From Candidatus Saccharimonadota bacterium (GTDB taxonomy: Archaea; Nanohalarchaeota; Nanosalinia; Nanosalinales; Nanosalinaceae), in the NCBI RefSeq assembly GCF_047555085.1, contig NZ_CP180230.1, forward strand, positions 90,001 through 122,000: a DNA stretch of 32,000 bases, written 5' to 3'. Positions 360-30,020 of the stretch are shown in pieces (within the stretch, counting starts at the first letter, position 1; the number at the start of each line of letters is the position of its first letter). The notes beneath the pieces are model-generated. The model was not told the DNA's origin. It saw only the letters and a list, made by a program, of their open reading frames with translations, and made no database searches. Position numbers and translations under genes: made by a program.

Positions 360-2624
360 ATGTTAGGTATGGACGTAAAAAACAAGGATGTATTCGACTA
401 CGAATACGACGACGAGACAGGAACAGTCGAAATCAACATGCTTGGATCGATCTATGGGGCCTCTATAGAGGATTATCCTGAAGTCATGTCCCGTGTAATC
501 AACATTCTACAGGAGATCCCGGAAGCAGGAAACGTAGTACTATCCGAATCAAGAGAATATGAGTATGAAGAAGATCAGATAAGGCTTCTAAGAGAGATAG
601 CGAACGCAGTAAGAGATATTTCAGCACAGGGATATCTTTCACAGGATATAAAGAGAGATAAATGCAGCCAGCTGTACGATCAGCATCTACCGGAAGTACA
701 GAGAATAGTATTTGACAAGTTAAGGAGAGATCCTGTAGGGGCCTACGTCAAGCTTATTAGAAAGGAAAGACACTTGAGACAGGATAAAGACCATGCGTAT
801 CCTCAGCAACAGCGCTGTATCAAGTATTTTATACAGGATGTGATTAAACCTGTCAAAAACACTCTGGAACAGTGTGAAATGATTCAGAGAGCACAGGACT
901 ATCTTACAGGATATCACGTTGGCGATAGAGAGATCTACAGGGAATTTTTCCACCCTCTTGTAAGGCCTAACTTTATGCTTACAAAGTACATGTCTCTTCC
1001 TCCTGAAAGAGGAGAGGAGAAAACTAGATATACTGTAAGAGACGATATCGAAGTTTCTGTGTATGAAGTCCCTGATCAAACAAGGCCTGTATATCACGTT
1101 GATCCCCCGGAGTTCAATCTTCCTGAGGAGAAATACAAACTCTTGGATGCAGCTAGACGTTTCATGGCCTCTCACAAGCCGGATGAAGGAGAGTTCGCAA
1201 GGCCTGAAAGAATGAATGAAGTCTTCGAGAACATCGGCAGGGACATGCTGAGAGATATTGCGAATCAGATGGGCCTCAAACTTTCACTTGACGAACTCGA
1301 CAAGCTTACAGATATACTTAACAGATATACTTCAGGCCTGGGAGTACTAGAGATTCTTTTGACTGATCCAAAAGTACAGGACGTCTACATTAACTCTCCG
1401 ATCGGAGATGCTCCGATTTACATTACGCATCAGGACTTTGAGGACTGCGAGACAAATCTTATTCCAACAAAAGAGGAGGCCGAATCCTGGGCCACACGCT
1501 TCAGGATCCAGTCTGGAAGGCCTCTTGACGAAGCAAATCCTGTTCTCGATACAGAGACAGAGGTACAGGGAGGCCGTGCCCGTGTAGCAGTAATACAGGA
1601 AAATCTCTCTCCTTCAGGCCTTGCATTTGCTTTAAGGCGCCACAGGTCCCGTATATGGACGCTTCCACTGTTTATACAGAATGGAACTATAAATTCTATC
1701 GGGGCAGCAGTGCTTTCCTTCCTTGTGGATGGTAATCGTTCGCATCTATTCGCAGGGACGCGTGGAGCAGGAAAGACGTCTCTTCTATCAGCTGCTATGC
1801 TGGAAATCATGAAAAATCATCGTATAGTTACTGTAGAAGATACTCTGGAGCTTCCTATACCTCAGATGAAGGATCTGGGATACAATATAGAAAGGATGAA
1901 ATCTCGCTCTGTAATTACGCAGGTTGAAAATGAAATGAGTGCGGATAATGCTATTCGTACCTCTCTCCGTCTTGGAGACTCTGCGCTTGTTATTGGAGAG
2001 GTCAGATCTGATGAGGCCCAGGCCCTTTATGAGGCTATGCGTGTGGGAGCTGTAGCGAACTTTGTTGGAGGTACGATTCACGGAGAGGATGCCTACTCTG
2101 TTTTTGATCGTGTAGTCAACGATCTGGATGTTCCACGTACATCTTTCAAGGCTACAGACATCATAGTTTCTGTAAATAAAATCAGAAGCCCAGATGGCTT
2201 AGAGACATATAGAAGGGTTACGGGTATTACAGAGGTCAGAAAAGAATGGGACGAAGATCCTATGAAAGAAGATGCGTTTGTTGATTTAATGAGGTACGAT
2301 AATGAGAAAGATGAGCTTGTGCCTACAGATACTTTGCGCAACGGTGAGTCGGAGATAATAAGCAGGATTGCGGAGAATGTACAGGGATACAAGAATGACT
2401 GGGAAGCTGTATGGGACAATATACAGCTAAGGAAGAAGATAAAGGAGGCTATAGTGGAGAAAGCAGAGGAAACAGGCAATGACGAGCTTTTAGAGGCTGA
2501 ATTTGTAAACAAGTGCAACCAAAGATACCATATTCTTTCGCGCAAGGTAAATGACGAATACGGAGAACAAGACACGGAGAGAATTTATGCGCGCTGGAAA
2601 GAGTGGCTTGACAGACAGGTGTGA
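360..2624 (+). CDS. type IV pilus/archaellum-family secretion ATPase (GspE/FlaI/PilB superfamily)
   Basis: 754-aa ORF with Walker A AGTRGAGKTS, Asp box IVTVEDTLEL, Walker B ALVIGEVRSDEA and His box GGTIHGED. This is the signature set of T2SSE-type hexameric secretion ATPases. Long N-terminal domain and a charged C-terminal tail. Confidence 0.9.
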   Translation: MLGMDVKNKDVFDYEYDDETGTVEINMLGSIYGASIEDYPEVMSRVINILQEIPEAGNVVLSESREYEYEEDQIRLLREIANAVRDISAQGYLSQDIKRDKCSQLYDQHLPEVQRIVFDKLRRDPVGAYVKLIRKERHLRQDKDHAYPQQQRCIKYFIQDVIKPVKNTLEQCEMIQRAQDYLTGYHVGDREIYREFFHPLVRPNFMLTKYMSLPPERGEEKTRYTVRDDIEVSVYEVPDQTRPVYHVDPPEFNLPEEKYKLLDAARRFMASHKPDEGEFARPERMNEVFENIGRDMLRDIANQMGLKLSLDELDKLTDILNRYTSGLGVLEILLTDPKVQDVYINSPIGDAPIYITHQDFEDCETNLIPTKEEAESWATRFRIQSGRPLDEANPVLDTETEVQGGRARVAVIQENLSPSGLAFALRRHRSRIWTLPLFIQNGTINSIGAAVLSFLVDGNRSHLFAGTRGAGKTSLLSAAMLEIMKNHRIVTVEDTLELPIPQMKDLGYNIERMKSRSVITQVENEMSADNAIRTSLRLGDSALVIGEVRSDEAQALYEAMRVGAVANFVGGTIHGEDAYSVFDRVVNDLDVPRTSFKATDIIVSVNKIRSPDGLETYRRVTGITEVRKEWDEDPMKEDAFVDLMRYDNEKDELVPTDTLRNGESEIISRIAENVQGYKNDWEAVWDNIQLRKKIKEAIVEKAEETGNDELLEAEFVNKCNQRYHILSRKVNDEYGEQDTERIYARWKEWLDRQV

Positions 2625-2630
2625 AATTAG

Positions 2631-4781
2631 GTGTCTGATGAGAAAGACAAACGTAAAGAGAAAATAAACGAGATAGTTGACAATCTCGATAGAGATATCG
2701 AGATGCCTCCATATACACAGAGCTCGGGCGACCGGGGATACTCTCGTCGATACAAACAGTACAAGCAGGAAGAGATAGATTCTGGAGAGAAAAGCACCTA
2801 CGAAAAATTGTGCTATAAGATGGCATCTCTCTTGCAGCTTAGTGCGGATGAATCAATTCAAAACAAACTTAATCCATCTTTGAACCTGTTGAGAATGCAG
2901 CTAACTCCTGGTATGGTGCTTTCTGGGGCTGTAGGAGTTGGATTTTTCTCCTTTATGATATGGGCTTTCGTCTTTGCTATCAACTTTATTATAGGCCCTA
3001 TAATACCGGTTTCTCTCATGATAATTTCTCTTGTTGCCCCTATAGGGGCAGGTGTCTACATGTTCTACAAGCCAATGTTTGATGCAAAGAACAAAGTTAT
3101 AGAAAGCAGTGGCGAAATGATACTTGCAATACTTTACATGGTAGTATACATGCGTTCCAGCCCAAATCTTGAAGGAGCAGTAAGATTTGCAGCTCTTAAT
3201 CTTAATGGCCCTGTTTCACATGATCTAAAAGGCGTTTTATGGGATCTAGAAGTAGGAAAGTTCAACAGGATAGATGAATCTCTGGAGAATTACACTGAAA
3301 ACTGGAAAGACTTCAACCAGGATTTCCTGGAGTCGCTGAACCTCTTGCAGGCAGCAATGGACGAGTCAAACGATGAAAGACGTGAAAAGATGCTTCAGGA
3401 TGCAATAGACAACATTCTGGAAGGAACCCAGGAGAAAATGAAGCACTATGCTCAGGGCCTTAAAACGCCTGTAATGATAATAAACGCCATGGGAGCGATG
3501 CTTCCTGTATTAGGTATGATTATGCTACCTCTTATCTCTGTATTTATGGGGGGAGTTATTACACCGATCCATCTTGTCATAATATTCAATATAATGCTTC
3601 CAGGATTTCTCTGGGTATTCATGCAGAGGGTTCTAAGCTCTAGGCCTCCAACAGTATCTTCTAGGCCTGTAAATACTGATTCGATGCCGCCAAGAGGCAA
3701 GTATGAAATTGAGTTCATGGGAGATAAGCATAGGTTGCCTACATGGCCTTTAGGCGTCATAGTATTCTGTATTGTCGCCATGTATGGTGTTATTGGCTAT
3801 TTAATCTATCCTCACATGTTTCCTGTAGAAAATATCAGTCCTGGAAGCGTTCCATCCATATTTATGTCTGGTAGCGAGTCTCTTGCACCTCTGCCTATGC
3901 TTATGCGATCTGTATCTATTGTTATGGCGCTAGGCCTCGGTTTTGGGATTACAAAGTATCTGGGGAATATCAACAGGCGTGATGCAGAGCAGCAGATAGA
4001 GGAGATGGAGAGCCAGTTCCCGAATGCACTTTTCGAGCTTGGTAACAAGGTTTCTGGGGGTACGCCTATGGAGATTGCACTGAAAAAGGCGGCTGATGCG
4101 ACGCAGGATCTTGAGATATCGAAGCTTTTCGAAGAGGCCTATGAAAATATTGATCAGATGGGTATGACTTTTGAACAGGCTATATTTGACGAGCGCTACG
4201 GTGCCTTGAGAAGCTTTCCAAGTCAGATGATTGATACTATTCTTACTGCTATTCTTCGTTCATCTCAAAAAGGTACTAAGATGGCGGCTACTGCTATGCT
4301 TACGATTTCCAGGTATCTAAAAGATGTTCACAAGACTGAAGAAACTCTTAATGATTTGATGGAAGAGTCTACAACTACTATTGAGATGCTTGCATACATG
4401 CTGGCTCCTATAATATCTGGAGTTGCTGTAGGAATGTCGCAGACGATTATAACAGCTATGTTCAAGCTTTCTACATCTATTAGCGCAGAGCAATCTGGCA
4501 GTACTCTTCAGGGAGGAGCTGCAGGAGGTGCAGGATTTGGAGGCATGATCGGCAACTTGAAAGAAGCTATCCCGCCAGAAATGCTACAGTTTGTAGTTGG
4601 GATTTATTTACTCCAGCTGCTTTACATACTAGGTACTTTCTACATGAAAATTGTCCATGGAGAAAATATGACATACAAGAATCTCTTCATTGGCAAAGTG
4701 ATGGTAACAGGCCTGATATTTTATACTCTTACGTTGACAGCCATCTCTGTCATGTTCGGTGGAGCTATATCCACGATGTAG
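2631..4781 (+). CDS. polytopic membrane platform protein (FlaJ/PilC/TadC, T2SSF-like)
   Basis: 716-aa ORF with a GTG start 7 nt after the ATPase stop. Two clusters of TM helices, each preceded by a soluble helical segment (GEMILAILYMVVYMRSSPNLEGAVRFAA and MESQFPNALFELGNKVSGGTPMEIALKKAA). This matches the duplicated T2SSF architecture. Sits directly downstream of the ATPase. Confidence 0.8.
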   Translation: MSDEKDKRKEKINEIVDNLDRDIEMPPYTQSSGDRGYSRRYKQYKQEEIDSGEKSTYEKLCYKMASLLQLSADESIQNKLNPSLNLLRMQLTPGMVLSGAVGVGFFSFMIWAFVFAINFIIGPIIPVSLMIISLVAPIGAGVYMFYKPMFDAKNKVIESSGEMILAILYMVVYMRSSPNLEGAVRFAALNLNGPVSHDLKGVLWDLEVGKFNRIDESLENYTENWKDFNQDFLESLNLLQAAMDESNDERREKMLQDAIDNILEGTQEKMKHYAQGLKTPVMIINAMGAMLPVLGMIMLPLISVFMGGVITPIHLVIIFNIMLPGFLWVFMQRVLSSRPPTVSSRPVNTDSMPPRGKYEIEFMGDKHRLPTWPLGVIVFCIVAMYGVIGYLIYPHMFPVENISPGSVPSIFMSGSESLAPLPMLMRSVSIVMALGLGFGITKYLGNINRRDAEQQIEEMESQFPNALFELGNKVSGGTPMEIALKKAADATQDLEISKLFEEAYENIDQMGMTFEQAIFDERYGALRSFPSQMIDTILTAILRSSQKGTKMAATAMLTISRYLKDVHKTEETLNDLMEESTTTIEMLAYMLAPIISGVAVGMSQTIITAMFKLSTSISAEQSGSTLQGGAAGGAGFGGMIGNLKEAIPPEMLQFVVGIYLLQLLYILGTFYMKIVHGENMTYKNLFIGKVMVTGLIFYTLTLTAISVMFGGAISTM

Positions 4782-4786
4782 AAAAT

Positions 4787-4794
4787 CTTTATAC
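4787..4794 (+). promoter_or_regulatory. candidate archaeal TATA box (CTTTATAC)
   Basis: TTTATAC-type element about 30 nt upstream of the ATG at 4822, in the first real intergenic gap after the platform gene. Confidence 0.3.
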
Positions 4795-4821
4795 GTGGCT
4801 TGACAAATATATGATGTGAAA

Positions 4822-4902
4822 ATGCAGGAAATCGTGGCTATCGCTGTCTCACTTGGAGTAGGTGCATTAATGATAGCCTTATGGGGTAAGGAAGTTTTAT
4901 GA
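4822..4902 (+). CDS. 26-aa hydrophobic micro-protein (hand-found, below ORF-track size cutoff)
   Basis: Translates as MQEIVAIAVSLGVGALMIALWGKEVL, a single TM helix. Its TGA overlaps the ATG at 4899 (ATGA). Could be non-coding. Confidence 0.3.
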   Translation: MQEIVAIAVSLGVGALMIALWGKEVL

Positions 4903-4943
4903 GGGTCTTGAGAAGCTGGATGGTTTACAGGAAAGGAGAAGAT

Positions 4944-5090
4944 ATGATGATGTCCGAGATAACTATAGGAGTTCTTGCGATAGCTATAGGGGCATTACTG
5001 GCTGCTGCAGCTTCCGGCATGCTAGGTAACAGCGGTATAACGGCAATGATAATGAGTCCTCTCTCCGAAATGACTGCAGGTGCCTTATAA
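4944..5090 (+). CDS. small membrane protein (48 aa from the ATG triplet; ORF track gives 4899..5090)
   Basis: MMMSEITIGVLAIAIGALLAAAASGMLGNSG... has an N-terminal hydrophobic helix. The SD-like AAAGGAGA lies just upstream of ATGATGATG at 4944. Its stop TAA overlaps the next ATG (TAATG). Confidence 0.4.
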   Translation: MMMSEITIGVLAIAIGALLAAAASGMLGNSGITAMIMSPLSEMTAGAL

Positions 5091-6058
5091 TGGCAGGACA
5101 GCAAATTAACAGGATGATGAGCATCGTACTTATACTTCTCTTTGTAGTAGTGCTCGGATCCTTCGCATTCACAATGGTAGGGGAAGCTGAATCTTCGGCA
5201 GTAGGAAAGATACAGATTAACAGCACACAGGCTATGACTCAACTTATCGTATACGACACACTGATAGCACACAGCTGCACCGATGAAAAAGGAGGTTACA
5301 GAAACTACCTTGATAGCTGGGCAGAATTCAGGGAAGAATACGACTTCGGCCTTCTTGAAGGAGCAGGATCCAGTCTTAGATGCTCTGCTTCAACTTCAAA
5401 GCTTCCGCTTTCACAGGGATTCTGGGATGAAGTAAACCCATTCGACAACGACAACTGGCTTAACGATCAACAGGGCAAATACTCCAGAAAAAATTTTGTC
5501 ATAGAGGGAGATGATCCTGTCGAACTAGGTCCATGCATAATCAATGAAGGGAACAACAAAGATATGGTGTTTTTCGTAACGGATGACAAAGTGGCAAACA
5601 CGCTCACATGGAACAAAGGATATAGTTTCAACAACGGAAATGATTATGTGAGTGCTTGGGAGTGTAATAGAATACATGGCGGTAGCGGCAATGGGGGTAC
5701 ATCTGATGGGCCTGTAATTGTCCTGAATGTTATTGGTGCTGATGAAGCAAATCCAAATACGCGGAGTGTTGGTGCATGGAACAACTTCAACGATGCAAAT
5801 ACAGGAGGTGCTCATGACATTCCGCTTCACTTCTACGAACTCTGTAAAGGCACATCAGGATACATCCAGACCAATGTAGCTAATAACAATGATGAAGTTG
5901 ATGATGGTGCTGACAGAGGACCTCATATATGGCGCAAAAGTGGCTCATATACTGCTGAACAGCCTCCTGGGGATCCTGATCGCGAAGTAGGAGGGAAGTC
6001 ACGTTCCAACAGGATGCATCCGTACATAGTGATAACTAACTGGGAGTCCTGTGATTAA
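5090..6058 (+). CDS. pilin-like/secreted protein with a single N-terminal TM helix (322 aa)
   Basis: MAGQQINRMMSIVLILLFVVVLGSFAFTMVG is followed by an Asn/Asp/Gly-rich soluble domain with 6 Cys. Translationally coupled to the upstream ORF. No family recognised. Confidence 0.6.
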   Translation: MAGQQINRMMSIVLILLFVVVLGSFAFTMVGEAESSAVGKIQINSTQAMTQLIVYDTLIAHSCTDEKGGYRNYLDSWAEFREEYDFGLLEGAGSSLRCSASTSKLPLSQGFWDEVNPFDNDNWLNDQQGKYSRKNFVIEGDDPVELGPCIINEGNNKDMVFFVTDDKVANTLTWNKGYSFNNGNDYVSAWECNRIHGGSGNGGTSDGPVIVLNVIGADEANPNTRSVGAWNNFNDANTGGAHDIPLHFYELCKGTSGYIQTNVANNNDEVDDGADRGPHIWRKSGSYTAEQPPGDPDREVGGKSRSNRMHPYIVITNWESCD

Positions 6059-6061
6059 GAA

Positions 6062-6069
6062 ATTTATAA
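6062..6069 (+). promoter_or_regulatory. candidate TATA box (ATTTATAA)
   Basis: AT-rich TATA-like octamer in the 54-nt gap after the 322-aa gene, about 45 nt upstream of the ATG at 6113. Confidence 0.25.
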
Positions 6070-6112
6070 GAGGAAAAACAAAGGCCTTAATGTGGAACGA
6101 AAAGGATTTGAC

Positions 6113-6241
6113 ATGCCTATATCCGCTGTACTTGCTATAGTTTTGGGAGTTCTGTTTATAGCGGCTTACTGGGCTGCAGTATCAGGATACTTTGATACCA
6201 CTGCACAACAGGCCACAGGACTGGCGGAGGCCCTGCCATGA
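6113..6241 (+). CDS. 42-aa hydrophobic micro-protein (hand-found)
   Basis: Translates as MPISAVLAIVLGVLFIAAYWAAVSGYFDTTAQQATGLAEALP. Its stop overlaps the next ATG (ATGA at 6238-6241). Confidence 0.35.
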   Translation: MPISAVLAIVLGVLFIAAYWAAVSGYFDTTAQQATGLAEALP

Positions 6242-6405
6242 AAACTAGCAAAGGATTCAATTTCTCTATAAGAACAGTCATGATTGTAACTGTTGGAGTA
6301 ATAGCTGCTCTAGTTATAATGTCATTTCTGAACGATGGCACAGGCCTTTTCTCAAATTTCACAAATAGAACAGTTCCAGAGGGTGGTTTTGTTGGACAGC
6401 CGTAA
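6238..6405 (+). CDS. 55-aa pilin-like protein with a class III signal peptide (hand-found)
   Basis: MKTSKG/FNFSIRTVMIVTVGVIAALVIMSF... has a short basic n-region, a KG cleavage-type motif and then a hydrophobic helix. This is the archaeal prepilin layout. Confidence 0.5.
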   Translation: MKTSKGFNFSIRTVMIVTVGVIAALVIMSFLNDGTGLFSNFTNRTVPEGGFVGQP

Positions 6406-6637
6406 AGCAGTCACTCTTTCGATAAAAACTGTTCTGTTGCTTATGATAGGCGCACTAGTCGTACTCAGTATCATGGGCGCCTGGGGCGCATTCGAAGGAA
6501 ATCTAAGTGATACAGTCGGCGATTCAAATCAACAGGCACAAGATCAGTCCAGCCAGGCTTCTTGTCAGCTGGAGTGCAGACAGGAACATCTGAGCGGTGG
6601 AGGTGAATACGAGGCCTGTGTTCAGAGCTGTTCGTAA
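6383..6637 (+). CDS. small pilin-like protein with four C-terminal Cys
   Basis: The ORF track starts at ATG 6335, which would overlap the previous gene by 70 nt. In-frame GTG 6383 or TTG 6389/6392 gives (M)VLLDSRKA/VTLSIKTVLLLMIGALVVLSIMG. The C-terminus is SCQLECRQEHLSGGGEYEACVQSCS (C-x3-C ... C-x3-C). Start uncertain. Confidence 0.5.
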   Translation: MVLLDSRKAVTLSIKTVLLLMIGALVVLSIMGAWGAFEGNLSDTVGDSNQQAQDQSSQASCQLECRQEHLSGGGEYEACVQSCS

Positions 6638-7202
6638 TTTAAAATCCAGTAAGGGGGCTATAATGGCCTCTACCGTATTTATAGTTGTTTCTGTAGTTGT
6701 ATCTGGTCTTGCAATGGATATAAGCATTAATACGGTTGTTGATTCATTTCAATCGGCCAGCGACCAAAGTGATGTTAACTGGTTCTCCACTAATATAGCG
6801 GCTAATGCCAAGCAGCTGTGCGAGACATCTGAGGAAAGAGTTGTCCCTCTAGATAGTAGCTACACACGGTATATCTCAGGTCTTCAGGGCATCAGTGTGG
6901 AAACTCAGGAACAGGTTATTCCCAGTTATGGTGCTGCTCCATCGACTACGATATACTATAACAAGTTTATACTCTCCTTCGAAGGAGGTGCAGATGATAA
7001 AGAAGTTACTATAGAGTCTGAGAGCTCAACTTACAGCGGTGGAGGTCCAGATGATTTTTCCTGCCAGACGATAGAGTTCAACGGCACTCAGACAGGTAGC
7101 TCCATCCAGAACCTAGATGGATCCCAAAGATATGATTACCGTCTCTACTCTGAACAGGAAGGAGAGGTAACTGTAGAAGTAGTTGAAAGTGGTGAGGCAT
7201 GA
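6597..7202 (+). CDS. pilin-like protein (201 aa; alternative start ATG 6663)
   Basis: The long form reads ...NLKSSKG/AIMASTVFIVVSVVVSGL, with a class III-like KG motif. The short form starts at MASTVF, preceded by an AAGGGGG SD. 2 Cys. Confidence 0.6.
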   Translation: MEVNTRPVFRAVRNLKSSKGAIMASTVFIVVSVVVSGLAMDISINTVVDSFQSASDQSDVNWFSTNIAANAKQLCETSEERVVPLDSSYTRYISGLQGISVETQEQVIPSYGAAPSTTIYYNKFILSFEGGADDKEVTIESESSTYSGGGPDDFSCQTIEFNGTQTGSSIQNLDGSQRYDYRLYSEQEGEVTVEVVESGEA

Positions 7203-7603
7203 CACTATCTGACAGAGCTGTTGTATTTTTGGTAGCTACTCTTTTGTCAGCAGCTACTTTGTCCACGGCAGGGATAGCTGAACAGAACAGCGTCTTCCAG
7301 AACAAGATTTTCGAACTCAGAGGCCAGCAATTAGCCAATGATATAGATGCCATGATGTATACGGATGAAGGATACCTTGAGAAAAGACTGGCATCTGAAA
7401 CAGATCTAACTATCACATCAGGAGACTCAGGTATGAAAATAGTGCTTGAGAGAGAAGGCCTGGACGATGTAGAGGCACCACTGGATTCAAGTCCGAGCTC
7501 GACAACTTTAGAGGACGTATCTTACCTCTGCATACATAAGCATAGATTCAATCCAGTTCAGGGAGTGGCTGAACTGGTAGATGTGGAGGGAGGACAATGT
7601 TAG
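7199..7603 (+). CDS. pilin-like protein (134 aa)
   Basis: MTLSDRA/VVFLVATLLSAATLSTAG N-terminal helix. ATGA overlap with the upstream gene. 2 Cys, one of them the C-terminal residue. Confidence 0.6.
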   Translation: MTLSDRAVVFLVATLLSAATLSTAGIAEQNSVFQNKIFELRGQQLANDIDAMMYTDEGYLEKRLASETDLTITSGDSGMKIVLEREGLDDVEAPLDSSPSSTTLEDVSYLCIHKHRFNPVQGVAELVDVEGGQC

Positions 7604-8094
7604 ATAATCGTATCGCACAGGCTGGTGTTATGGTGGGCGTAATGGGGCTTCTATTTGGAATGGTATTGGCTCCTATACCGAACGTGGCCTCTGAATATGT
7701 CTTACAAGGTATACTTGGAGACATGACTTTTCACTATGGTCGACATCAGGCTGCTTTTGAGGCATATCAGATAACAGCATCACCATCAAATCCAAACTAT
7801 CTGGTTGAAGATTACGTGATTCAGACGGCGGTTGACAATCCTTCCGACTGTGAAAACTCCAGGGGGGACTACTTCCAGTTCGAAAGAAGTGTGCTTGATG
7901 ATGGAAACTGTGTTGAGACTCCGGATACTGCATATACATATGGGTACTATGGCACAGGTGCAGCGTATCAGCAGGAAATAACAGATACTCCACCAAGAAT
8001 ATCGTTTTACGTTAGAGACGATGGCCCAAACTCAATGAATCTCGAATTAAGTGAACAAACACTGAATACGTTACCATTTTATCAAGAGGATTAG
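7597..8094 (+). CDS. pilin-like protein (165 aa)
   Basis: MLDNRIAQAGVMVGVMGLLFGMVLAPIP N-terminal helix. 7-nt overlap with the upstream gene. 2 Cys. Confidence 0.6.
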   Translation: MLDNRIAQAGVMVGVMGLLFGMVLAPIPNVASEYVLQGILGDMTFHYGRHQAAFEAYQITASPSNPNYLVEDYVIQTAVDNPSDCENSRGDYFQFERSVLDDGNCVETPDTAYTYGYYGTGAAYQQEITDTPPRISFYVRDDGPNSMNLELSEQTLNTLPFYQED

Positions 8095-8104
8095 AAATAT
8101 GTTT

Positions 8105-8112
8105 AAGGAGGT
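8105..8112 (+). promoter_or_regulatory. Shine-Dalgarno site AAGGAGGT
   Basis: Near-perfect complement of an archaeal 16S 3' end, 8 nt upstream of the ATG at 8121. Weaker GGTG/GAGGTG motifs precede many other starts here (2631, 13102, 18362, 20487, 22093). Confidence 0.5.
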
Positions 8113-8120
8113 AGAAAGAA

Positions 8121-8615
8121 ATGGCTAGCATCGCGGATGGACTTTTCTTTCCAATAGCTGCTGTAGCCACGGCCGCATTCATTGCATTTGTAGTGGCCAT
8201 AATACCTCAGGCGACTGCAGATCTTACTACTGCTGCTAACAGGCAGACGGCACAGTTAGAAGTACATTCTATGATGTCTACATTGTTCCACGGACAATCT
8301 TACAGTGCCGATGATGGGACGCCAATAACAGATTATCAAACTATATCCTATCTTATCTGCGGCAAAAACCCTGATAATGGAGGCTGGCTGGACATAGGCA
8401 ATCAGGAATACCTTGATACAGGTGAAATAGAACTGGCCTCTCACTATGAGATACGGATTTCAACACCGGATCTATGTGGCAACAGCAAATGGAATCCGCC
8501 TGAAGGATATGCGGGAGTAGACTCAGGTCAGACTGTAAACAGCTACTATGATGTAATGCTGCCTGTGAGAGGAGGGGAAACAGCCCGTATACGAATGGTG
8601 TATGGATTTGACTAA
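8121..8615 (+). CDS. pilin-like protein (164 aa)
   Basis: MASIADGLFFPIAAVATAAFIAFVVAIIPQ N-terminal helix. Strong SD. 2 Cys. Confidence 0.65.
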   Translation: MASIADGLFFPIAAVATAAFIAFVVAIIPQATADLTTAANRQTAQLEVHSMMSTLFHGQSYSADDGTPITDYQTISYLICGKNPDNGGWLDIGNQEYLDTGEIELASHYEIRISTPDLCGNSKWNPPEGYAGVDSGQTVNSYYDVMLPVRGGETARIRMVYGFD

Positions 8616-10131
8616 GAGAAGACAACAAAAAGGACAGTCGATGCAGATACTTCTTTTCGCTTTAGTAATAGTAGGCCTTGCTGTAGGCGTAATGTCATTT
8701 ACACAGGTAATGACTGCTCCACAGATATTCGGTTCTACCATGGATGATGTACCGGTTATCTCAGAGGCCCAGTCCAGGACGGATAACGTGGCTAATTACT
8801 ATGTGCCGCTTTCAGCGCACTACTCCATGGCACAGGGCGTGTATGATGTAGGACAGGCCAACGACATAATAATGACGTATCAGAATCTCCAAGATCATTA
8901 CGGTGACGAGGTGGACGACGTTGAAGTAGCATCACAGTATACATTTGAGGGGTATATACAGGATCCAGAATGGGAAATAGGAAGATGCACTATAGAGGTG
9001 CCTCCGAAAGATCTTGAGGTCGGGATAAACTCCACTCTCGTGAACGTCACCAAGGAAAACTACAACGATCCATTCGTCAGAACCCTCTGTGAAGGTGGTG
9101 ATGTAGAGGTACAAACACAGAGTAACAAAGACGAGGCCCAGAAAAACACGTCCAATATCCGTTTCCATCACCTCATGGTGATGACTATAAACGGCCTGGA
9201 GGCGGTTCATGAGGAATCTGAAACTGCAAAAGATGATGACGATTACTACGGCACTGTAACTGAAGAAGGGGCCTGTTATCTCGATGGGAACGATCCCCAG
9301 ACAAAAGAGGAAAAAGCCAGACAGGATGCCAGGCAAGAATCATATGACTCCGCAGTAAGCGAGATTCTAAGTCTTCAGGAGAGATTTGAGGAAGCAGGAT
9401 GGAACGCAGTAGATAATATCGAAGTATCTGAAGACGAAAATACAGGTATATTTGGCAGAATTATAAATTTTGTTACGTTCTGGGAGACGGATAATACATT
9501 TGACTGGAGCTTCAATGTCTACGAAAACTCCACAGAGATTAGCGAACAGTCAAATGAGCTTAGCGACTGCGAATGTGCAGAATATGACTGCGAAGGATAC
9601 ATAGATGATAGTACATACGAATACGATTCATCCGACAGTCAGTGCAAACATGAAGATGAACCCTTTGGAAGCCCAAATTGTGATGAATACAGCGGGGTAG
9701 TCCACGATGGGTCAGGAAGCTGTGAAACAAGTTATCATCCTCCAAAATGCGATCCCGGATACAGTTTCAACTCGAGCACCAATACATGTGAATCTGATTA
9801 TGGCAATGACTGGGAGTTCGCCTGCGATCAGAATGACTACTACCTGGATACCAGTGATGAAGAATGCGTACACGATAATTCAGGAGAAGATGCAACCTGT
9901 GATAGCTCGGCAGCCAAAGAGTCCGGCGGCGACTGTGTACACGATGGAGAAAGACCTAGTCCAGTATGCGTGCTACAGCCTGTAAAAGCAGAATCTGAGA
10001 CATACTACGAACTGAAAGACTACAAAATGCAATCATACACCGAGGACGAAAAATACGAAATACCTGTGGAAGATGGATGGGAAAACCTTGAGATCAAACG
10101 AAGATACCCATACGACTTCCCAGAACCATAG
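8602..10131 (+). CDS. large pilin-like protein with a Cys-rich C-terminal domain (putative tip adhesin)
   Basis: MDLTKRRQQKGQS/MQILLFALVIVGLAVGVMSF is a typical archaeal class III signal (basic n-region, KGQ, hydrophobic helix). The 509-aa protein is very acidic and has 16 Cys, 13 of them in residues 323-456. 14-nt overlap with the upstream gene. Confidence 0.75.
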   Translation: MDLTKRRQQKGQSMQILLFALVIVGLAVGVMSFTQVMTAPQIFGSTMDDVPVISEAQSRTDNVANYYVPLSAHYSMAQGVYDVGQANDIIMTYQNLQDHYGDEVDDVEVASQYTFEGYIQDPEWEIGRCTIEVPPKDLEVGINSTLVNVTKENYNDPFVRTLCEGGDVEVQTQSNKDEAQKNTSNIRFHHLMVMTINGLEAVHEESETAKDDDDYYGTVTEEGACYLDGNDPQTKEEKARQDARQESYDSAVSEILSLQERFEEAGWNAVDNIEVSEDENTGIFGRIINFVTFWETDNTFDWSFNVYENSTEISEQSNELSDCECAEYDCEGYIDDSTYEYDSSDSQCKHEDEPFGSPNCDEYSGVVHDGSGSCETSYHPPKCDPGYSFNSSTNTCESDYGNDWEFACDQNDYYLDTSDEECVHDNSGEDATCDSSAAKESGGDCVHDGERPSPVCVLQPVKAESETYYELKDYKMQSYTEDEKYEIPVEDGWENLEIKRRYPYDFPEP

Positions 10132-10183
10132 GCAGCAGAGATAAAAATTTTCACTACAAATACACCAACCAAGTGACTACCAT

Positions 10184-10468
10184 ATGACACAGGATACAGC
10201 AGACGACAACACGGTATACATTGGCTCAAAAACAGCAATGAGCTACGTACACGCCGTAGTAACTCAGTTCAGCGAAGGACAGGAAACAGTACACATCAAG
10301 GCCCGAGGAAAAGCAATAAGCAGGGCAGTAGATGTGACTGAATTCATAAGAAATCGCTTCGTAGAAGACGCAGAGATAGAAAATATAGAAGTAGGAACAG
10401 ATCAGATCGAGACAGATGAAGGCGGAGAACTCAACGTATCTTCAATACAGATCGATCTAACAAAATAA
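10184..10468 (+). CDS. albA: chromatin protein Alba (Sac10b family)
   Basis: 94 aa. [21 protein letters not shown]...[24 protein letters not shown] matches the conserved Alba core (IKARG.AIS.AVD..E..RNRF). Confidence 0.9.
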
Positions 10469-10540
10469 TTCCCCAGAGGCCTCATCCAGAGGCCCAGGGA
10501 AAATCTATTTTTATCGAATAAGGCTTATTTCTCAAAGGAT

Positions 10541-10548
10541 TTTTATAC
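10541..10548 (+). promoter_or_regulatory. candidate TATA box TTTTATAC
   Basis: Ends 23 nt before the ATG at 10572, a spacing expected for a leaderless or near-leaderless archaeal mRNA. The same octamer lies in front of 11251. Confidence 0.4.
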
Positions 10549-10571
10549 AGGCATAGATAACAACACACTAT

Positions 10572-10916
10572 ATGGAACGTAAAGGAATCTCTCAGGTATT
10601 ATTCTTGATAATAGCAGCATCCGTACTGATGATGGTAGCACTAACGCTCATTTTCATGTTCCAGTCCGGTGCCGGAGATACTACTCAACAGGCCCAGACA
10701 CAGACATGCATATCATCTGTACAGGCTAAATGTAACAGCTTCGGAGATGAATATGTGAGAATGCCTGGGGCATGCATAACAACAGTTGATGGACAGAGAC
10801 AGATGCTTCCAAACACATTCGCGCCACATACTCAGGGAGCTAATGGATACAGTTCGGTATCGTCGCTTTCAGGGACTTCAGGCGCTGTCTATGCTGACTG
10901 TGGAGAAGTTTCATGA
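10572..10916 (+). CDS. pilin with class III signal peptide (114 aa), candidate major subunit
   Basis: MERKG/ISQVLFLIIAASVLMMVALTLIFMF. Small Ser/Thr/Gln-rich domain with 4 Cys. Has its own TATA-like element. Confidence 0.7.
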   Translation: MERKGISQVLFLIIAASVLMMVALTLIFMFQSGAGDTTQQAQTQTCISSVQAKCNSFGDEYVRMPGACITTVDGQRQMLPNTFAPHTQGANGYSSVSSLSGTSGAVYADCGEVS

Positions 10917-10926
10917 GGTATAGAGA

Positions 10927-11202
10927 ATGGATAAGACTCTGGAGATAGTGCTGGTGGCAACCACGCTCGTAGTAGCATCTGTAGTGGTTGTCTCCATGCT
11001 TCAGGGCCAATCCAGCAGCTTTGGAGATTTTTCTGAGGGCCAGACGAGCTCAGCATCATGCGGACTTGGTTACCAGCAGTGGCAGCAGTCGATTGACTGT
11101 GGTGGGGGATCCGCAGACACGACCTCACGATCAGATGAACTGGAGAGCGAGTATGATGACTGCGAGTGGACTGACAGTCCCAGCGCCAGTGAAGCATGCT
11201 AG
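10927..11202 (+). CDS. small pilin-like protein, paralog A (91 aa)
   Basis: MDKTLEIVLVATTLVVASVVVVSMLQGQ N-terminus. 4 Cys, including the C-terminal residue. Paralogous to 11251..11520. Confidence 0.65.
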   Translation: MDKTLEIVLVATTLVVASVVVVSMLQGQSSSFGDFSEGQTSSASCGLGYQQWQQSIDCGGGSADTTSRSDELESEYDDCEWTDSPSASEAC

Positions 11203-11221
11203 AAGCCATTTTTCAAATTTC

Positions 11222-11229
11222 TTTTATAC
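11222..11229 (+). promoter_or_regulatory. candidate TATA box TTTTATAC
   Basis: Ends 21 nt before the ATG at 11251. Identical octamer to 10541-10548. Confidence 0.4.
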
Positions 11230-11250
11230 CTCCATCCACAATAGAACTCT

Positions 11251-11520
11251 ATGGATAAGACGCTGGAGATAATCATGGTCGCCATGACACTTGTAGTAGC
11301 GGCCGTAGTAGTTATTTCCATGCTTCAGGGAGAATCAGGAGATTTTGGTGAGTTCTCAGATGGACAGCAGGAGAGCTCTCAGTGCGGACTTGAAGAACTC
11401 AAATACGAGAGAGCTCTTGATAAGGAATCCTGTTCGGAAACAACTGCAGCTGAGAACATAAGAACAGGCTCCAGTTGTGACTGGGCAGGAAGCAGCAGCC
11501 AAGCATCAGACTACTGCTAG
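11251..11520 (+). CDS. small pilin-like protein, paralog B (89 aa)
   Basis: MDKTLEIIMVAMTLVVAAVVVISMLQGE N-terminus. Cys pattern is conserved with paralog A (CGL...C...C[ED]W...C-end). Confidence 0.65.
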   Translation: MDKTLEIIMVAMTLVVAAVVVISMLQGESGDFGEFSDGQQESSQCGLEELKYERALDKESCSETTAAENIRTGSSCDWAGSSSQASDYC

Positions 11521-23319: not shown

Positions 23320-24366
23320 ATGATTTTAAAGGCCTCCGGACTGAGAAAATTTTCCATGGATGATCAGAAAATCTTTCTACTGTCCGCAGCAGCATCTATA
23401 ATCCTGCTCGGTGCAGCTTTCCACGTATTTACAGATGAAGATTCTGGATTCGTGCAGGAAAACAAAATTGATCTGGATGTGAAAGACGTGGAGCTGATCT
23501 CGGCCTCGAAAAGCGTAGCATACGGCAAAGGATACAGCTTGGACGCTTCTCTGAGTCTCTCACAGGCCTCTGATCCAGTAGTTGTACGCTACAGAACGAT
23601 GCGTGGAACAGCAGCAGGCGGAGCACAGGCATTATTCGACTACAGTTTCCTCGATCCTGGCGAGGAGATAGATGTGAGGCTTGAACAGAATCGCGAAGAA
23701 AATCAAAGCAATCAGACAGTGAAGATTTCCTATATTCCTGTCGAAAAAGGCCTTGAAAATATAGATGAAGAGGACTATAGGGTCTTTAATTCGCCTCAGA
23801 ATTATCCGGAGTACGTTAAAGGCAACAGTACGGAGATGAGTTTCTCTTTCGATCCGGAAAACTACGATATTCCGGCTTCTACTCAGGAAACATCTGAAGG
23901 CGGTGAAAATAGATTTACCGACTATCTTTCAAACTTTGATTTCACAGTTGAGAAAAACGGATACTTTATACACAGAAAGTCGATGGGCAATGATACGATC
24001 GCCAATCTTACCGTGACTCTCGGCGAGGAGGCCTCTGAAGCAGCTGTGATCGATTATGTGGTATGCACAGAATGTTCCCCACAGAGGACGGAGAAAGTAA
24101 TCCAGCCTGGCGAAAGCAAAAATATCATGTACGAGTACAACTTGAAGAATCAATCGGACTCAATCTCAAACAATCATAGAATCAGATACGTACCGGTCAG
24201 CGAAGTACCGGAAGAGGAACTTGGAAATCCACTGGCAATGGAACTGGAAAGTTACGCAGAGGACTCTTTGATAGGTGAAAAAGAAATCCCCCTTCCAGGA
24301 CAGCAACAATTGAAAAATGAAAACGTGACTACAGTAACTGAAGCACCGACACCCACAAGATTCTAG
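23320..24366 (+). CDS. membrane-anchored or secreted hypothetical protein (348 aa)
   Basis: N-terminal helix IFLLSAAASIILLGAAFHVF, with a likely real start at MDDQK. The acidic extracellular part shows weak internal two-domain similarity. No family recognised. Confidence 0.6.
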   Translation: MILKASGLRKFSMDDQKIFLLSAAASIILLGAAFHVFTDEDSGFVQENKIDLDVKDVELISASKSVAYGKGYSLDASLSLSQASDPVVVRYRTMRGTAAGGAQALFDYSFLDPGEEIDVRLEQNREENQSNQTVKISYIPVEKGLENIDEEDYRVFNSPQNYPEYVKGNSTEMSFSFDPENYDIPASTQETSEGGENRFTDYLSNFDFTVEKNGYFIHRKSMGNDTIANLTVTLGEEASEAAVIDYVVCTECSPQRTEKVIQPGESKNIMYEYNLKNQSDSISNNHRIRYVPVSEVPEEELGNPLAMELESYAEDSLIGEKEIPLPGQQQLKNENVTTVTEAPTPTRF

Positions 24367-29246: not shown

Positions 29247-30020
29247 GTGTTTGTACTGGCTCAGATAGGTGTCCTGAAGCTGAGAACAGGTTCTGGTATC
29301 GAAGAAGTCCCTGTTTTCGATACTTCTGATGTTTCACAGGATTTTCTACGTGTTCAGACGGCTGCAGGTACAGGAGCTCTCGCACTTGTCGATCCGGAAC
29401 AGGCAGATATACCTGAGCTACGTGTGATGACTTCATCCGGAGTCAGATCGGTGAAAAAGTCCCTTTCATCGTACGAGTTCTACGATGGCTTCGAGGCCTC
29501 AAGTGTAGACAGTTCCTGGAGTACAGAGGAGATGACAGGTCAGACAAGTTATGAAGTTTCCAGTAACAGAGCTTTCAGCGGCTCACAGTCCGTAAGGATC
29601 TACATGGACGATGATGAAATGTCGGGAGATGATGAAAATGCTGCTCTGAGGCGTTACTTCGATCAGCCGCGTGAAAGAAGGTTCAGTGTCATGGTCTATG
29701 ATGAAGGAACTTCGGAACAGTGGATAGCCTCTGTAAGCAACAGCAACGTCAGCAGCGGCCTACAGGCCCTGGAGTGGGGGCAGTCCTCGGATTATACGTA
29801 CAGGGATGGAGGCAGCTTCAACAGCACCGGTAAATCCAGGACCACAGGATGGAGAAAGTTCGAGTTCGTGGCTGATGGAACGGAGACAAGATTCCTCATT
29901 GATGGGGACGTAGTTCATACCTCAACTGCTTATGGAACTTTCGACAGCATAACTATAGGATCTTTCTGGGGAGTCAATGACTGGGGGTACTACGACGATG
30001 TCAAGGTAGAAAGACTGTAG
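29247..30020 (+). CDS. hypothetical protein with a possible concanavalin-A/LamG-like beta-sandwich C-terminal domain
   Basis: 257 aa with a GTG start. The C-terminal WRKFEFVADGTETRFLIDGDVVHT...ITIGSFWG...YYDDVKV resembles LamG/ConA-like lectin-fold endings. No obvious signal peptide. Confidence 0.5.
   Translation: MFVLAQIGVLKLRTGSGIEEVPVFDTSDVSQDFLRVQTAAGTGALALVDPEQADIPELRVMTSSGVRSVKKSLSSYEFYDGFEASSVDSSWSTEEMTGQTSYEVSSNRAFSGSQSVRIYMDDDEMSGDDENAALRRYFDQPRERRFSVMVYDEGTSEQWIASVSNSNVSSGLQALEWGQSSDYTYRDGGSFNSTGKSRTTGWRKFEFVADGTETRFLIDGDVVHTSTAYGTFDSITIGSFWGVNDWGYYDDVKVERL

Follow-up and report, generated by a model that had tools for sequence, protein, structure and literature searches.

The window analysed here is a 32,000-nucleotide stretch of contig NZ_CP180230.1 (positions 90,001 to 122,000) from the nanohaloarchaeon "Ca. 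Nanosalina sp. VS9-1". Positions 360 to 11520 of its plus strand most probably hold a genuine biogenesis cluster for a type IV pilus (type IV filament, TFF), one that is coherent and conserved. The kind of machine, and the existence of this type of locus, are already known. The annotation of the downstream genes is the new part: the pilin complement, formerly "hypothetical proteins" without Pfam family, is now sorted into conserved positional families, together with a candidate major pilin. The open reading frames (ORFs) of this region were numbered g1 to g16 in order, g13 being a gene for the chromatin protein Alba (Table 1). A preliminary description of this DNA had recognised a pilus-like ATPase, a platform and many pilin-like substrates in the genome of a DPANN-type halophile. 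This core reading was borne out by domain matches, motif statistics, phylum-wide synteny and the pilin-shaped model of g14, and the source organism is indeed a nanohaloarchaeon.

The assembly ATPase encoded by g1, of the hexameric type, contains a Pfam T2SSE domain (1.9e-15), and its nearest solved structures are Archaeoglobus fulgidus GspE2 (2OAP, 9e-27), FlaI (4e-21) and CpaF (7e-18). A Walker A motif (GTRGAGKT) is found at residue 466, and direct reading revealed a Walker B motif (IVTVED) at residues 489–494. The N-terminal ~290 residues form a region without matches, the similarity to the TadA family and CpaF is confined to the ATPase core, and a match to ArlH (E 0.002) is a P-loop artefact. 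Relatives of g1, at 48–93% identity, were found in the genomes of 53 GTDB species, almost all of them Nanohaloarchaeota, and the closest plasmid-borne ATPases are from Haloterrigena (40–45% identity over the core). The platform gene g2 follows after a gap of 6 nt. Its product matches T2SSF in two stretches (8.7e-8) and has nine predicted transmembrane segments. In all the nanohaloarchaeal loci the platform gene adjoins that of the ATPase, with 53–82% identity. The FlaI/PilB-type ATPase and the FlaJ/PilC-type platform of the preliminary description are thereby confirmed. ATPase orthologs of the Nanohalobium and Nanosalinarum clades carry an intein of 493–498 amino acids (L032:10001-13750, L043 and L046; also L027, L039, L041, L042 and L044; L-numbers denote related loci recovered via ATPase similarity). 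It is inserted directly after the Walker B motif IVTVED, corresponding to residue 494 (nt ~1841) of the window ATPase, which is intein-free. The intein begins with SVTGDS and ends with ILAHN, and the +1 residue is Thr.

Downstream of these two genes, 13 ORFs on the same strand (g3–g12 and g14–g16) encode products of 49–509 amino acids. Ten are larger and three have 49–63 amino acids, in agreement with the count given earlier of ten larger subunits and three micro-proteins. Every one of the 13 starts with a strongly hydrophobic N-terminal segment, and g6 is the only product among them that is not acidic. The genes g3–g12 are tightly packed (overlaps of −1, −4, −4, −7 and −14 nt). The nearly gapless same-strand run described previously holds for these ten genes and is then interrupted by the Alba gene, which separates them from g14–g16, a group with TATA boxes of its own; T-runs and wider gaps lie on either side of Alba and of g15. 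Alba (PF01918, 1.7e-17) also qualifies the statement of that description that every product is helix-first, since the 94-residue protein lacks such a helix. For the 13 helix-first ORFs no pilin or other credible family was found in Pfam and NCBIfam scans, and no PDB family. Two of the products, g12 (ACK3SF_00565) and g14 (ACK3SF_00575), identical in sequence (100%) to these entries of "Ca. Nanosalina sp. VS9-1", are both annotated as "hypothetical protein".

The closest relative of the locus is designated L001. All-against-all phmmer clustering of 473 ORFs from the loci yielded the positional families, numbered with an F. Gene order and size pattern are kept in about 30 nanohaloarchaeal loci, in a syntenic block composed of the ATPase, the platform, 5–7 kb of same-strand ORFs, Alba, a g14-like and a g15-like gene and then iPGM on the opposite strand. 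The cassette has about 11 positions, with product sizes of ~45, 65, 300–800, 50, 50, 75, 140, 140, 170, 180 and 350–400 amino acids. In order, the families are a small ORF (g3), F4, F2 (g4), F11 (g5), a small ORF (g6) and F0 (g7), followed by F1/F12 (g8), F1 (g9), F6/F8/F13 (g10), F7/F10/F14/F17 (g11) and F5/F9 (g12). After the operon follow Alba, F0 (g14) and further F0 members (g15, g16).

The order is conserved far better than the sequences. Using tblastn, the middle genes were found complete only in L001, with small parts in a few other loci. The L001 copies are 35–57% identical to those of the window, whereas the ATPase is 93% identical. Nonsynonymous divergence (dN) from L001 is 0.27–0.72 for the pilin-like genes, compared to 0.054 (ATPase), 0.117 (platform) and 0.051 (Alba), and the cassette proteins diverge 5–13 times faster than the ATPase. 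When the families were compared by hhalign with signal and helix removed, only F5 and F9 were linked confidently (probability 98.7%); the link between F7 and F14 was weak (10%). For the remaining positional equivalents, homology is therefore judged by position, size and Cys pattern; the families at the g10 position, for example, share two conserved Cys in their alignment. The very fast divergence of the exposed parts fits adaptation to different hosts, but does not prove it. Distant DPANN loci, with ATPases about 53–65% identical and some of them labelled Aenigmarchaeota, also hold cassettes with KG motifs. A typical nanohaloarchaeal pilus locus, with an ATPase 77% identical, was found in L009 (JBLGBK010000001.1), which is titled "MAG: Colwellia polaris"; this bin is probably mislabelled or contaminated.

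Class III signal motifs were identified with a FlaFind-like regular expression, [KR][GAS] located at most 9 residues upstream of the first hydrophobic 15-mer. Eight of the 13 ORFs carry the motif: g3 (RKG/E), g5 (RKG/F), g6 (SKG/F), g7 (RKA/V), g8 (SKG/A), g9 (DRA/V), g12 (QKG/Q) and g14 (RKG/I). The five signals of the preliminary description are accordingly too few, as eight ORFs have [KR][GA] before the helix, and in g12 cleavage at KG/QS is more likely than at the KGQS/M proposed there. Across related loci, 31 in number, 210 cassette proteins carry the motif; position −2 is K in 198 of them and position −1 is G in 184. Outside the cassette it was present in 7 of 96 control ORFs bearing an N-terminal hydrophobic segment, and the motif in the cassettes is thus well above chance. 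Q at +1 was seen in 32 of the 210 motifs, including that of g12. The motif is never present in families F6 (0/13), F8 (0/10) and F14 (0/3), which shows that not every cassette gene encodes a pilin. The motif-less families have the helix, sometimes followed by an A-x-A-like site, and their products may be membrane-anchored or Sec-exported accessory proteins. Ten cassette proteins contain Cys, each of them in an even number, and Cys makes up 2.25% of the cassette residues versus 0.58% in the remaining window proteins. This is as expected from disulfide-bonded extracellular domains.

Major type IV pilins are known for a core helix that does not vary, an exposed head that does, a strong promoter of their own and paralogs in tandem. 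When 11 orthologs of g14 were aligned, the first ~45 residues proved invariant, and the remaining sequence was variable apart from four fixed Cys. In pairwise comparisons of 18 loci from across the phylum, identity averages 0.71 in the helix and 0.26 in the remainder; the helix identity of every other family is 0.55 or lower. An exhaustive hidden Markov model search with g14 among 1.84 billion representatives revealed only 122 members, nearly all of 80–136 amino acids, of which 95 share the consensus K-G/[M/L]-S-Q-[I/V/T]-L-x-L-I-[V/I]-A-A-S-V-L. A TTTAWA box is found at −26 to −38 in 16 of 18 g14 orthologs, where about 1% is expected by chance, and is absent from internal cassette families (e.g. 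F1 0/49, F2 0/37). The TTTATA box upstream of g14 in the window is a predicted promoter, from which a leaderless or short-leader transcript would start. An AlphaFold2 model of g14 (predicted local distance difference test score, pLDDT, 76) has the shape of a lollipop, with a 54-residue helix (residues 4–57) followed by a six-stranded beta domain. The near-invariant helix, the shared KG/SQ consensus, the conserved TATA box and the lollipop model make g14 the best candidate for the major pilin, as judged from sequence and predicted structure. A tendency towards tandem duplication has been reported for major pilins (PMC4858521).

Alba lies between the operon and g14 in all 21 loci in which it was found in the region analysed. 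In two distant DPANN loci, L025 and L028, where Alba was not detected, a g14-like gene (KKG/VSQIIWFLIAF) and a g15-like gene (MEKTLEIILAL) are adjacent to each other and located inside the cassette. This supports the assignment of g14–g16 to the machine. The N-termini of g15 and g16 (MDKTLEI...) have no K-G site, and a similar N-terminus, M-x-K-T-[LV]-[EA]-[IV], recurs beside the g14-like gene in these distant loci (L025:15135, L028:6804), so that it looks like an N-terminal type that is conserved.

Several observations weigh against a pilus cluster with g14 as its major subunit. Pfam searches with 254 cassette proteins from the related loci gave no match to Pilin_N, Class_IIIsignal or archaellin; the only real domain among them was one Peptidase_M64. 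PDB profile searches with F0 (g14), F1, F2, F5/F9 and the g10 position were empty, except for a weak Ig match of F1, and a structural search of the PDB with the g14 model gave no significant neighbour (Foldseek best E = 2). As noted in the preliminary description, the window ORFs scanned include no prepilin peptidase (Peptidase_A24), nor FlaH, FlaF or FlaG. A crude heuristic for A24 peptidases, based on transmembrane segments and GxGD, found none in the flanks (0.9 Mb) of 53 loci and picked up only an unrelated conserved family with five transmembrane segments upstream. Five of the 13 ORFs (g4, g10, g11, g15 and g16) were negative in the FlaFind-like test and have no cleavage motif. There is no evidence of omega > 1: compared with the closest relative dN/dS is about 0.1–0.27, values that are unreliable as synonymous divergence (dS) is saturated (about 2 or undefined), and positive selection is not demonstrable with such a dS. 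Furthermore, g14–g16 are tied to the ATPase by conserved adjacency and by paralogy with g7, and a second pilus-like locus reported in these genomes could use g14 instead (PMC11291902).

The locus could alternatively encode an archaellum, that is, a machine for rotary motility, as the related operon of "Ca. Nanohalobium constans" has been annotated (FlaG, FlaI, FlaJ, FlaJ2 and hypothetical proteins). The literature annotation was accompanied by "archaella-like" stalks (PMC7443923), the N-terminus of F1 is faintly archaellin-like (E 0.3–1), and FlaI (NF058587, 3.4e-41) is the best NCBIfam name for the ATPase. That match scores 141.6 bits against an equivalog cut-off of 550, however, and the closest solved relative, A. 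fulgidus GspE2, is a non-archaellar ATPase. FlaH, FlaF/FlaG, FlaCDE/X and archaellin (PF01917) were found neither among the window ORFs scanned nor among the 254 cassette proteins, and Hamm et al. likewise judged the gene set insufficient (PMC6642349). We consider an archaellum highly improbable and reject membership in that class on these features. A short pseudopilus, or a bindosome-like export and display system (compare the type II secretion system and Bas), presenting g4, g12 and other proteins without a long filament, is unlikely, and membership among the bindosomes was likewise rejected. It would account for the variety of class III proteins in the operon, few of which are obvious filament subunits, for members without pilin signals that may be Sec cargo and for the metalloprotease in one F2 member. 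A weak BasE match (1.8e-17) also speaks for it, and TFF machineries displaying functional proteins have been proposed (preprint 10.64898/2026.04.22.720090). The conservation signature and promoter of g14, on the other hand, are those of an abundant polymerising subunit, and filaments have been seen on a related nanohaloarchaeon (PMC7443923). The 254 cassette proteins contain no substrate-binding-protein domains, and the BasE match reaches 63 bits against a cut-off of 1000.

Roles in DNA or nutrient uptake, or as a conduit between the cytoplasms of symbiont and host, have been proposed for DPANN pili (PMC9563170, PMC11291902), and the organism depends on host metabolites. Such a function in place of adhesion is very unlikely here: the cluster and the window ORFs scanned contain no nuclease, no DNA-binding domain and nothing resembling ComEA/ComEC, the window has no paralog that could serve as a retraction ATPase, and nothing in the sequences is specific for uptake. 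Finally, the genes might not form a single system at all, but be unrelated small membrane proteins and partly spurious ORFs that follow an ATPase and a platform, with g14–g16 unrelated to the rest. The lack of family-level annotation, the interruption by Alba and the ambiguous starts of g3, g7 and g8 speak for this. It is nevertheless extremely improbable, given that order, sizes, motif and Cys patterns are kept across about 30 genomes despite saturated synonymous divergence, that g7 within the operon is a paralog of g14–g16, and that g14-like and g15-like genes are located inside the cassette in distant DPANN loci. In the preferred interpretation as a pilus, the filament most likely serves to attach the cell to surfaces or to its haloarchaeal host. 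Attachment to the host is plausible, and is widely hypothesised for DPANN archaea.

The Epd pilus of Methanococcus maripaludis has its major pilin, EpdE (MMP1685), encoded outside the main epd cluster. The pilus requires an 11-gene cluster (PMC4858521; 2026 preprint 10.64898/2026.04.22.720090) with several minor pilins and an adhesin-like protein, contrary to the premise of the preliminary description that archaeal pilus operons have few pilins. The window locus resembles Epd, or TFF system 1, in having one ATPase/platform module, a large operon of class III minor pilins, an adhesin-like protein and very short pilins without globular domain, and system 1 has been reported in some DPANN (PMC4858521; 10.64898/2026.04.22.720090). 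Membership in system 1 was rejected. In that system two platform genes and a dedicated peptidase, EppA, belong to the locus or its vicinity, whereas a single 716-residue platform and no peptidase are found in the window, and the 254 cassette proteins gave no match to PF04021, the Class_IIIsignal/DUF361 pilins of that system (Q at +1, QxSxExxxL). In contrast to Epd, g14 as the candidate major pilin bears a small head domain with disulfide bonds, and all the pilin families here are lineage-specific.

In archaeal type IV pili in general, as described by Makarova et al. 2016 (PMC4858521), ATPase/TadC modules are accompanied by adhesins and by major and minor pilins that evolve fast, and in some cases by coiled-coil proteins. 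The plan of euryarchaeal and halobacterial pili (clades 2, 4C and 4F of Makarova et al. 2016; PilB/PilC of Haloferax with its PilA pilins) is the same as in the window, with ATPase, TadC and a PilA-like major pilin that tends to duplicate in tandem. F2 resembles the arCOG02911-like minor pilin of variable length that duplicates in type IV pilus clades, and the 4F clade has an intracellular coiled-coil protein. The window locus differs from these in having no Pilin_N (PF07790) match and many more pilin-like genes in cis. The bacterial Tad/Flp system is similar in its CpaF-like ATPase (7e-18), TadB/C-type platform and very short pilins. It was rejected as the N-termini have no G/XXXXEY, there is no secretin and no RcpC/TadZ-type partner, and the signal is the archaeal K-G/hydrophobic.

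As a kind, the apparatus is not undescribed, as the preliminary description had it: ATPase/platform loci of Nanohaloarchaeota and other DPANN have been reported (PMC6642349, PMC7443923, PMC11291902, PMC6393860). DPANN loci with "dark matter" signal-bearing genes, probably pilins, were described in 2019 (Makarova et al., PMC6393860). FlaI, FlaJ and an "archaellin" were found in the proteome of "Ca. Nanohaloarchaeum" and read as pilus-like (Hamm et al. 2019, PMC6642349). Pilus-like stalks were imaged in "Ca. Nanohalobium", which has an operon with FlaI, FlaJ and seven hypothetical proteins (La Cono et al. 2020, PMC7443923), and two conserved pilus-like loci with coiled-coil proteins have been reported in cluster-2 DPANN (Hamm et al. 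2024, PMC11291902). The loci of Hamm et al. 2024 and the "archaella" operon of "Ca. Nanohalobium constans" share with the window locus the phylum, a CpaF/FlaI-like ATPase, a TadC/FlaJ-like platform and downstream hypothetical proteins, and are probably the same orthologous locus. In the window, the CpaF-like ATPase and TadC have coiled-coil proteins within about 10 genes (the first and last rows of Table 1). Coiled-coil genes lie on both sides of the cluster, which is probably one of the loci of Hamm et al. In the published loci of Hamm et al. and La Cono et al. only the ATPase and platform are annotated (FlaF/PilA being in the other locus); positional families, motif statistics and a major pilin candidate are absent there.

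In the mechanism we propose, a prepilin peptidase encoded elsewhere would cut after K-G, and ATPase and platform would pull the mature subunits out of the membrane and assemble them into a polymer via their N-terminal helices. The major filament subunit would be g14, with its near-invariant helix, variable head with two disulfides and dedicated conserved promoter. The genes g3–g12 form a translationally coupled operon of exported, disulfide-containing, helix-first proteins. Of these, the headless short pilins g3, g5, g6 and g7 and the larger KG-bearing g8, g9 and g12 could serve as minor pilins in a priming or tip complex. The large and length-variable g4 family would be the likely adhesin, and the KG-less g10 and g11 may be membrane-anchored or Sec-exported accessory proteins.

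The ways in which DPANN archaea locate and keep a host are little understood, and few co-cultures are available. A bolder proposal, which we regard as possible but rather doubtful, is that the phylum-wide cassette of ~11 positions sets host specificity, with a conserved g14 filament and a rapidly diversifying tip complex of F2, g8, g9 and g12 recognising, and perhaps breaching, the S-layers of particular haloarchaeal hosts. If this is true, variation of the cassette would set the host range of Nanohaloarchaeota. In any case, a block of "hypothetical proteins" becomes a parts list conserved across Nanohaloarchaeota: a candidate major pilin with the mature N-terminus [M/L]SQ.L.LI.AASVL..., minor pilins, KG-less accessories and, as candidate adhesin, a hypervariable protein. 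The "archaellum" label given to loci of this type is also corrected. Conceptually the analysis extends a well-known machine, and no new machine is revealed.

Table 1. Coordinates of the pilus cluster and neighbouring features in the window (aa, amino acids).
Feature	Start	End	Strand	Description	Basis or remark
Coiled-coil protein	1	325	-	N-terminal 108 codons, MPQQNIINQVVDRVNDFNRRVRDLEEK...; cut by the window edge	Divergent from the ATPase
g1	360	2624	+	Assembly ATPase, FlaI/PilB/GspE2/CpaF clade, 754 aa	T2SSE, PDB matches, Walker motifs
g2	2631	4781	+	FlaJ/TadC/PilC-type polytopic platform, 716 aa	T2SSF, transmembrane scan
Micro-ORF	4822	4902	+	Hydrophobic, 26 aa, MQEIVAIAVSLGVGALMIALWGKEVL; tentative	Read from the g2–g3 gap
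g3	4899	5090	+	Micro-pilin-like, 63 aa, RKG/EDMMMSEITIGVLAIAIG	Motif; internal ATG is a possible true start
g4 (F2)	5090	6058	+	Large Cys-rich exported protein, candidate adhesin	Family comparison
g5 (F11)	6092	6241	+	Putative headless pilin, 49 aa, MERKG/FDMPISAVLAIVLGVLFIAAY	Own TTTATA at 6063–6068
g6	6238	6405	+	Pilin-like micro-protein, 55 aa, MKTSKG/FNFSIRTVMIVTVGVIAALVIMSF	Motif
g7 (F0)	6383	6637	+	Pilin-like Cys4 protein, ~81–84 aa, SRKA/VTLSIKTVLLLMIGALVVLS; paralog of g14–g16	
g8 (F12, F1 position)	6597	7202	+	Minor-pilin-like, 201 aa, SSKG/AIMASTVFIVVSVVVSGLAM, 2 Cys	
g9 (F1)	7199	7603	+	Minor-pilin-like, 134 aa, SDRA/VVFLVATLLSAATLS, 2 Cys	
g10 (F13; F6/F8 position)	7597	8094	+	165 aa, N-terminal helix, two conserved Cys, KG-less	
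g11 (F14; F7/F10/F17 position)	8121	8615	+	164 aa, N-terminal helix, KG-less in clade	
g12 (F5, homologous to F9)	8602	10131	+	Pilin-like, 509 aa, QKG/QSMQILLFALVIVGLAVGV	Last gene of the operon
g13	10184	10468	+	Alba chromatin protein, 94 aa, outside the machine	PF01918, 1.7e-17
TTTATA box	10542	10547	+	Lies 30 nt before the start codon of g14	T-run at 10508, between Alba and the box
g14 (F0)	10572	10916	+	Candidate major pilin, 114 aa, MERKG/ISQVLFLIIAASVLMMVALTLIFMFQSG..., 4 conserved Cys	
g15 (F0 paralog)	10927	11202	+	Cys4 protein, 91 aa, MDKTLEIVLVATTLVVASVVVVSML, KG-less	
g16	11251	11520	+	Tandem paralog of g15, 89 aa	TTTATA at 11223–11228, T-run at 11209
Coiled-coil protein	13102	14703	+	Very acidic, 533 aa, two genes past the cluster	Coiled-coil-type matches only (SMC, Rad50, NPV_P10)

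The start codons of g3, g7 and g8 are ambiguous. The ORF of g7 opens at 6335, with a probable start at a GTG/TTG at 6383–6392. The tentative micro-ORF in front of g3 is below the ORF-listing threshold; it has a TTTATA 34 nt upstream, and its stop overlaps the ATG of g3. The ortholog of g3 in L001 is 50% identical. Positional equivalents of g6, of ~40–55 amino acids, occur in all loci. The helix identity of F11, the family of g5, is 0.55, the second highest among the families, and by analogy with EpdE and Flp g5 might be an alternative or additional filament subunit.

The product of g4 has the N-terminal helix, KG being absent in this clade, and a possible Sec-type A-x-A site (GEA/E). Its dN compared with L001 is 0.54. 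The F2 family is present in nearly all loci and duplicated in several, its members range from 154 to 1171 amino acids, and about half of them have KG. The family has a CxGxxGYIQxN motif and four Cys that hardly vary. An F2 member of 886 amino acids (L005:8104-10764) encodes a C-terminal Peptidase_M64 domain (IgA-peptidase-like), with HEFGH at residue 786, and may be a protease delivered by the pilus system.

F1 is generally found as two neighbouring copies per locus, and its profile gave a weak match to an Ig domain (1IE5, E=0.0017) in addition to the non-significant archaellin N-termini. The dN of g8 is 0.65. The product of g10 is probably a membrane-anchored or Sec-exported accessory protein and not a pilin; that of g11 has a possible Sec-type site (ATA/D). 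The last gene of the operon, g12, is conserved phylum-wide, with conserved Cys and an NRY motif in the F5/F9 alignment. In the window and L001 it contains a Cys-rich insertion of ~130 residues (~323–456) that no other F5/F9 member has. Most of the 16 Cys of the protein lie in this insertion, as does a weak internal repeat, ECVHD/DCVHD. An AlphaFold2 model of g12 was unusable (pLDDT 41, from an alignment of 5 sequences), and a profile query to enlarge the alignment returned the same 5 proteins.

The coiled-coil protein at the left edge of the window is conserved and has ~142 amino acids in full (matches at L001 5392-5820(-) and L007 9538-9969(-)), with only generic coiled-coil noise in Pfam. 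It is possibly a cytoplasmic accessory or regulatory partner. The larger coiled-coil protein past the cluster is, from its sequence, possibly of the type reported beside DPANN pilus-like loci (PMC11291902). Other conserved coiled-coil flankers are a Q/N-rich protein of 283–308 amino acids and larger ones further upstream (L001, L007). Three conserved small multi-transmembrane proteins (85–107, ~200 and ~165 amino acids) are encoded about 2 kb upstream. Neither these nor the flanking coiled-coil proteins gave a Pfam family. Elsewhere in the window, the Pfam-less ORFs 23320–24366 (348 amino acids, with an N-terminal hydrophobic segment) and 29247–30020 (257 amino acids) may encode surface proteins.

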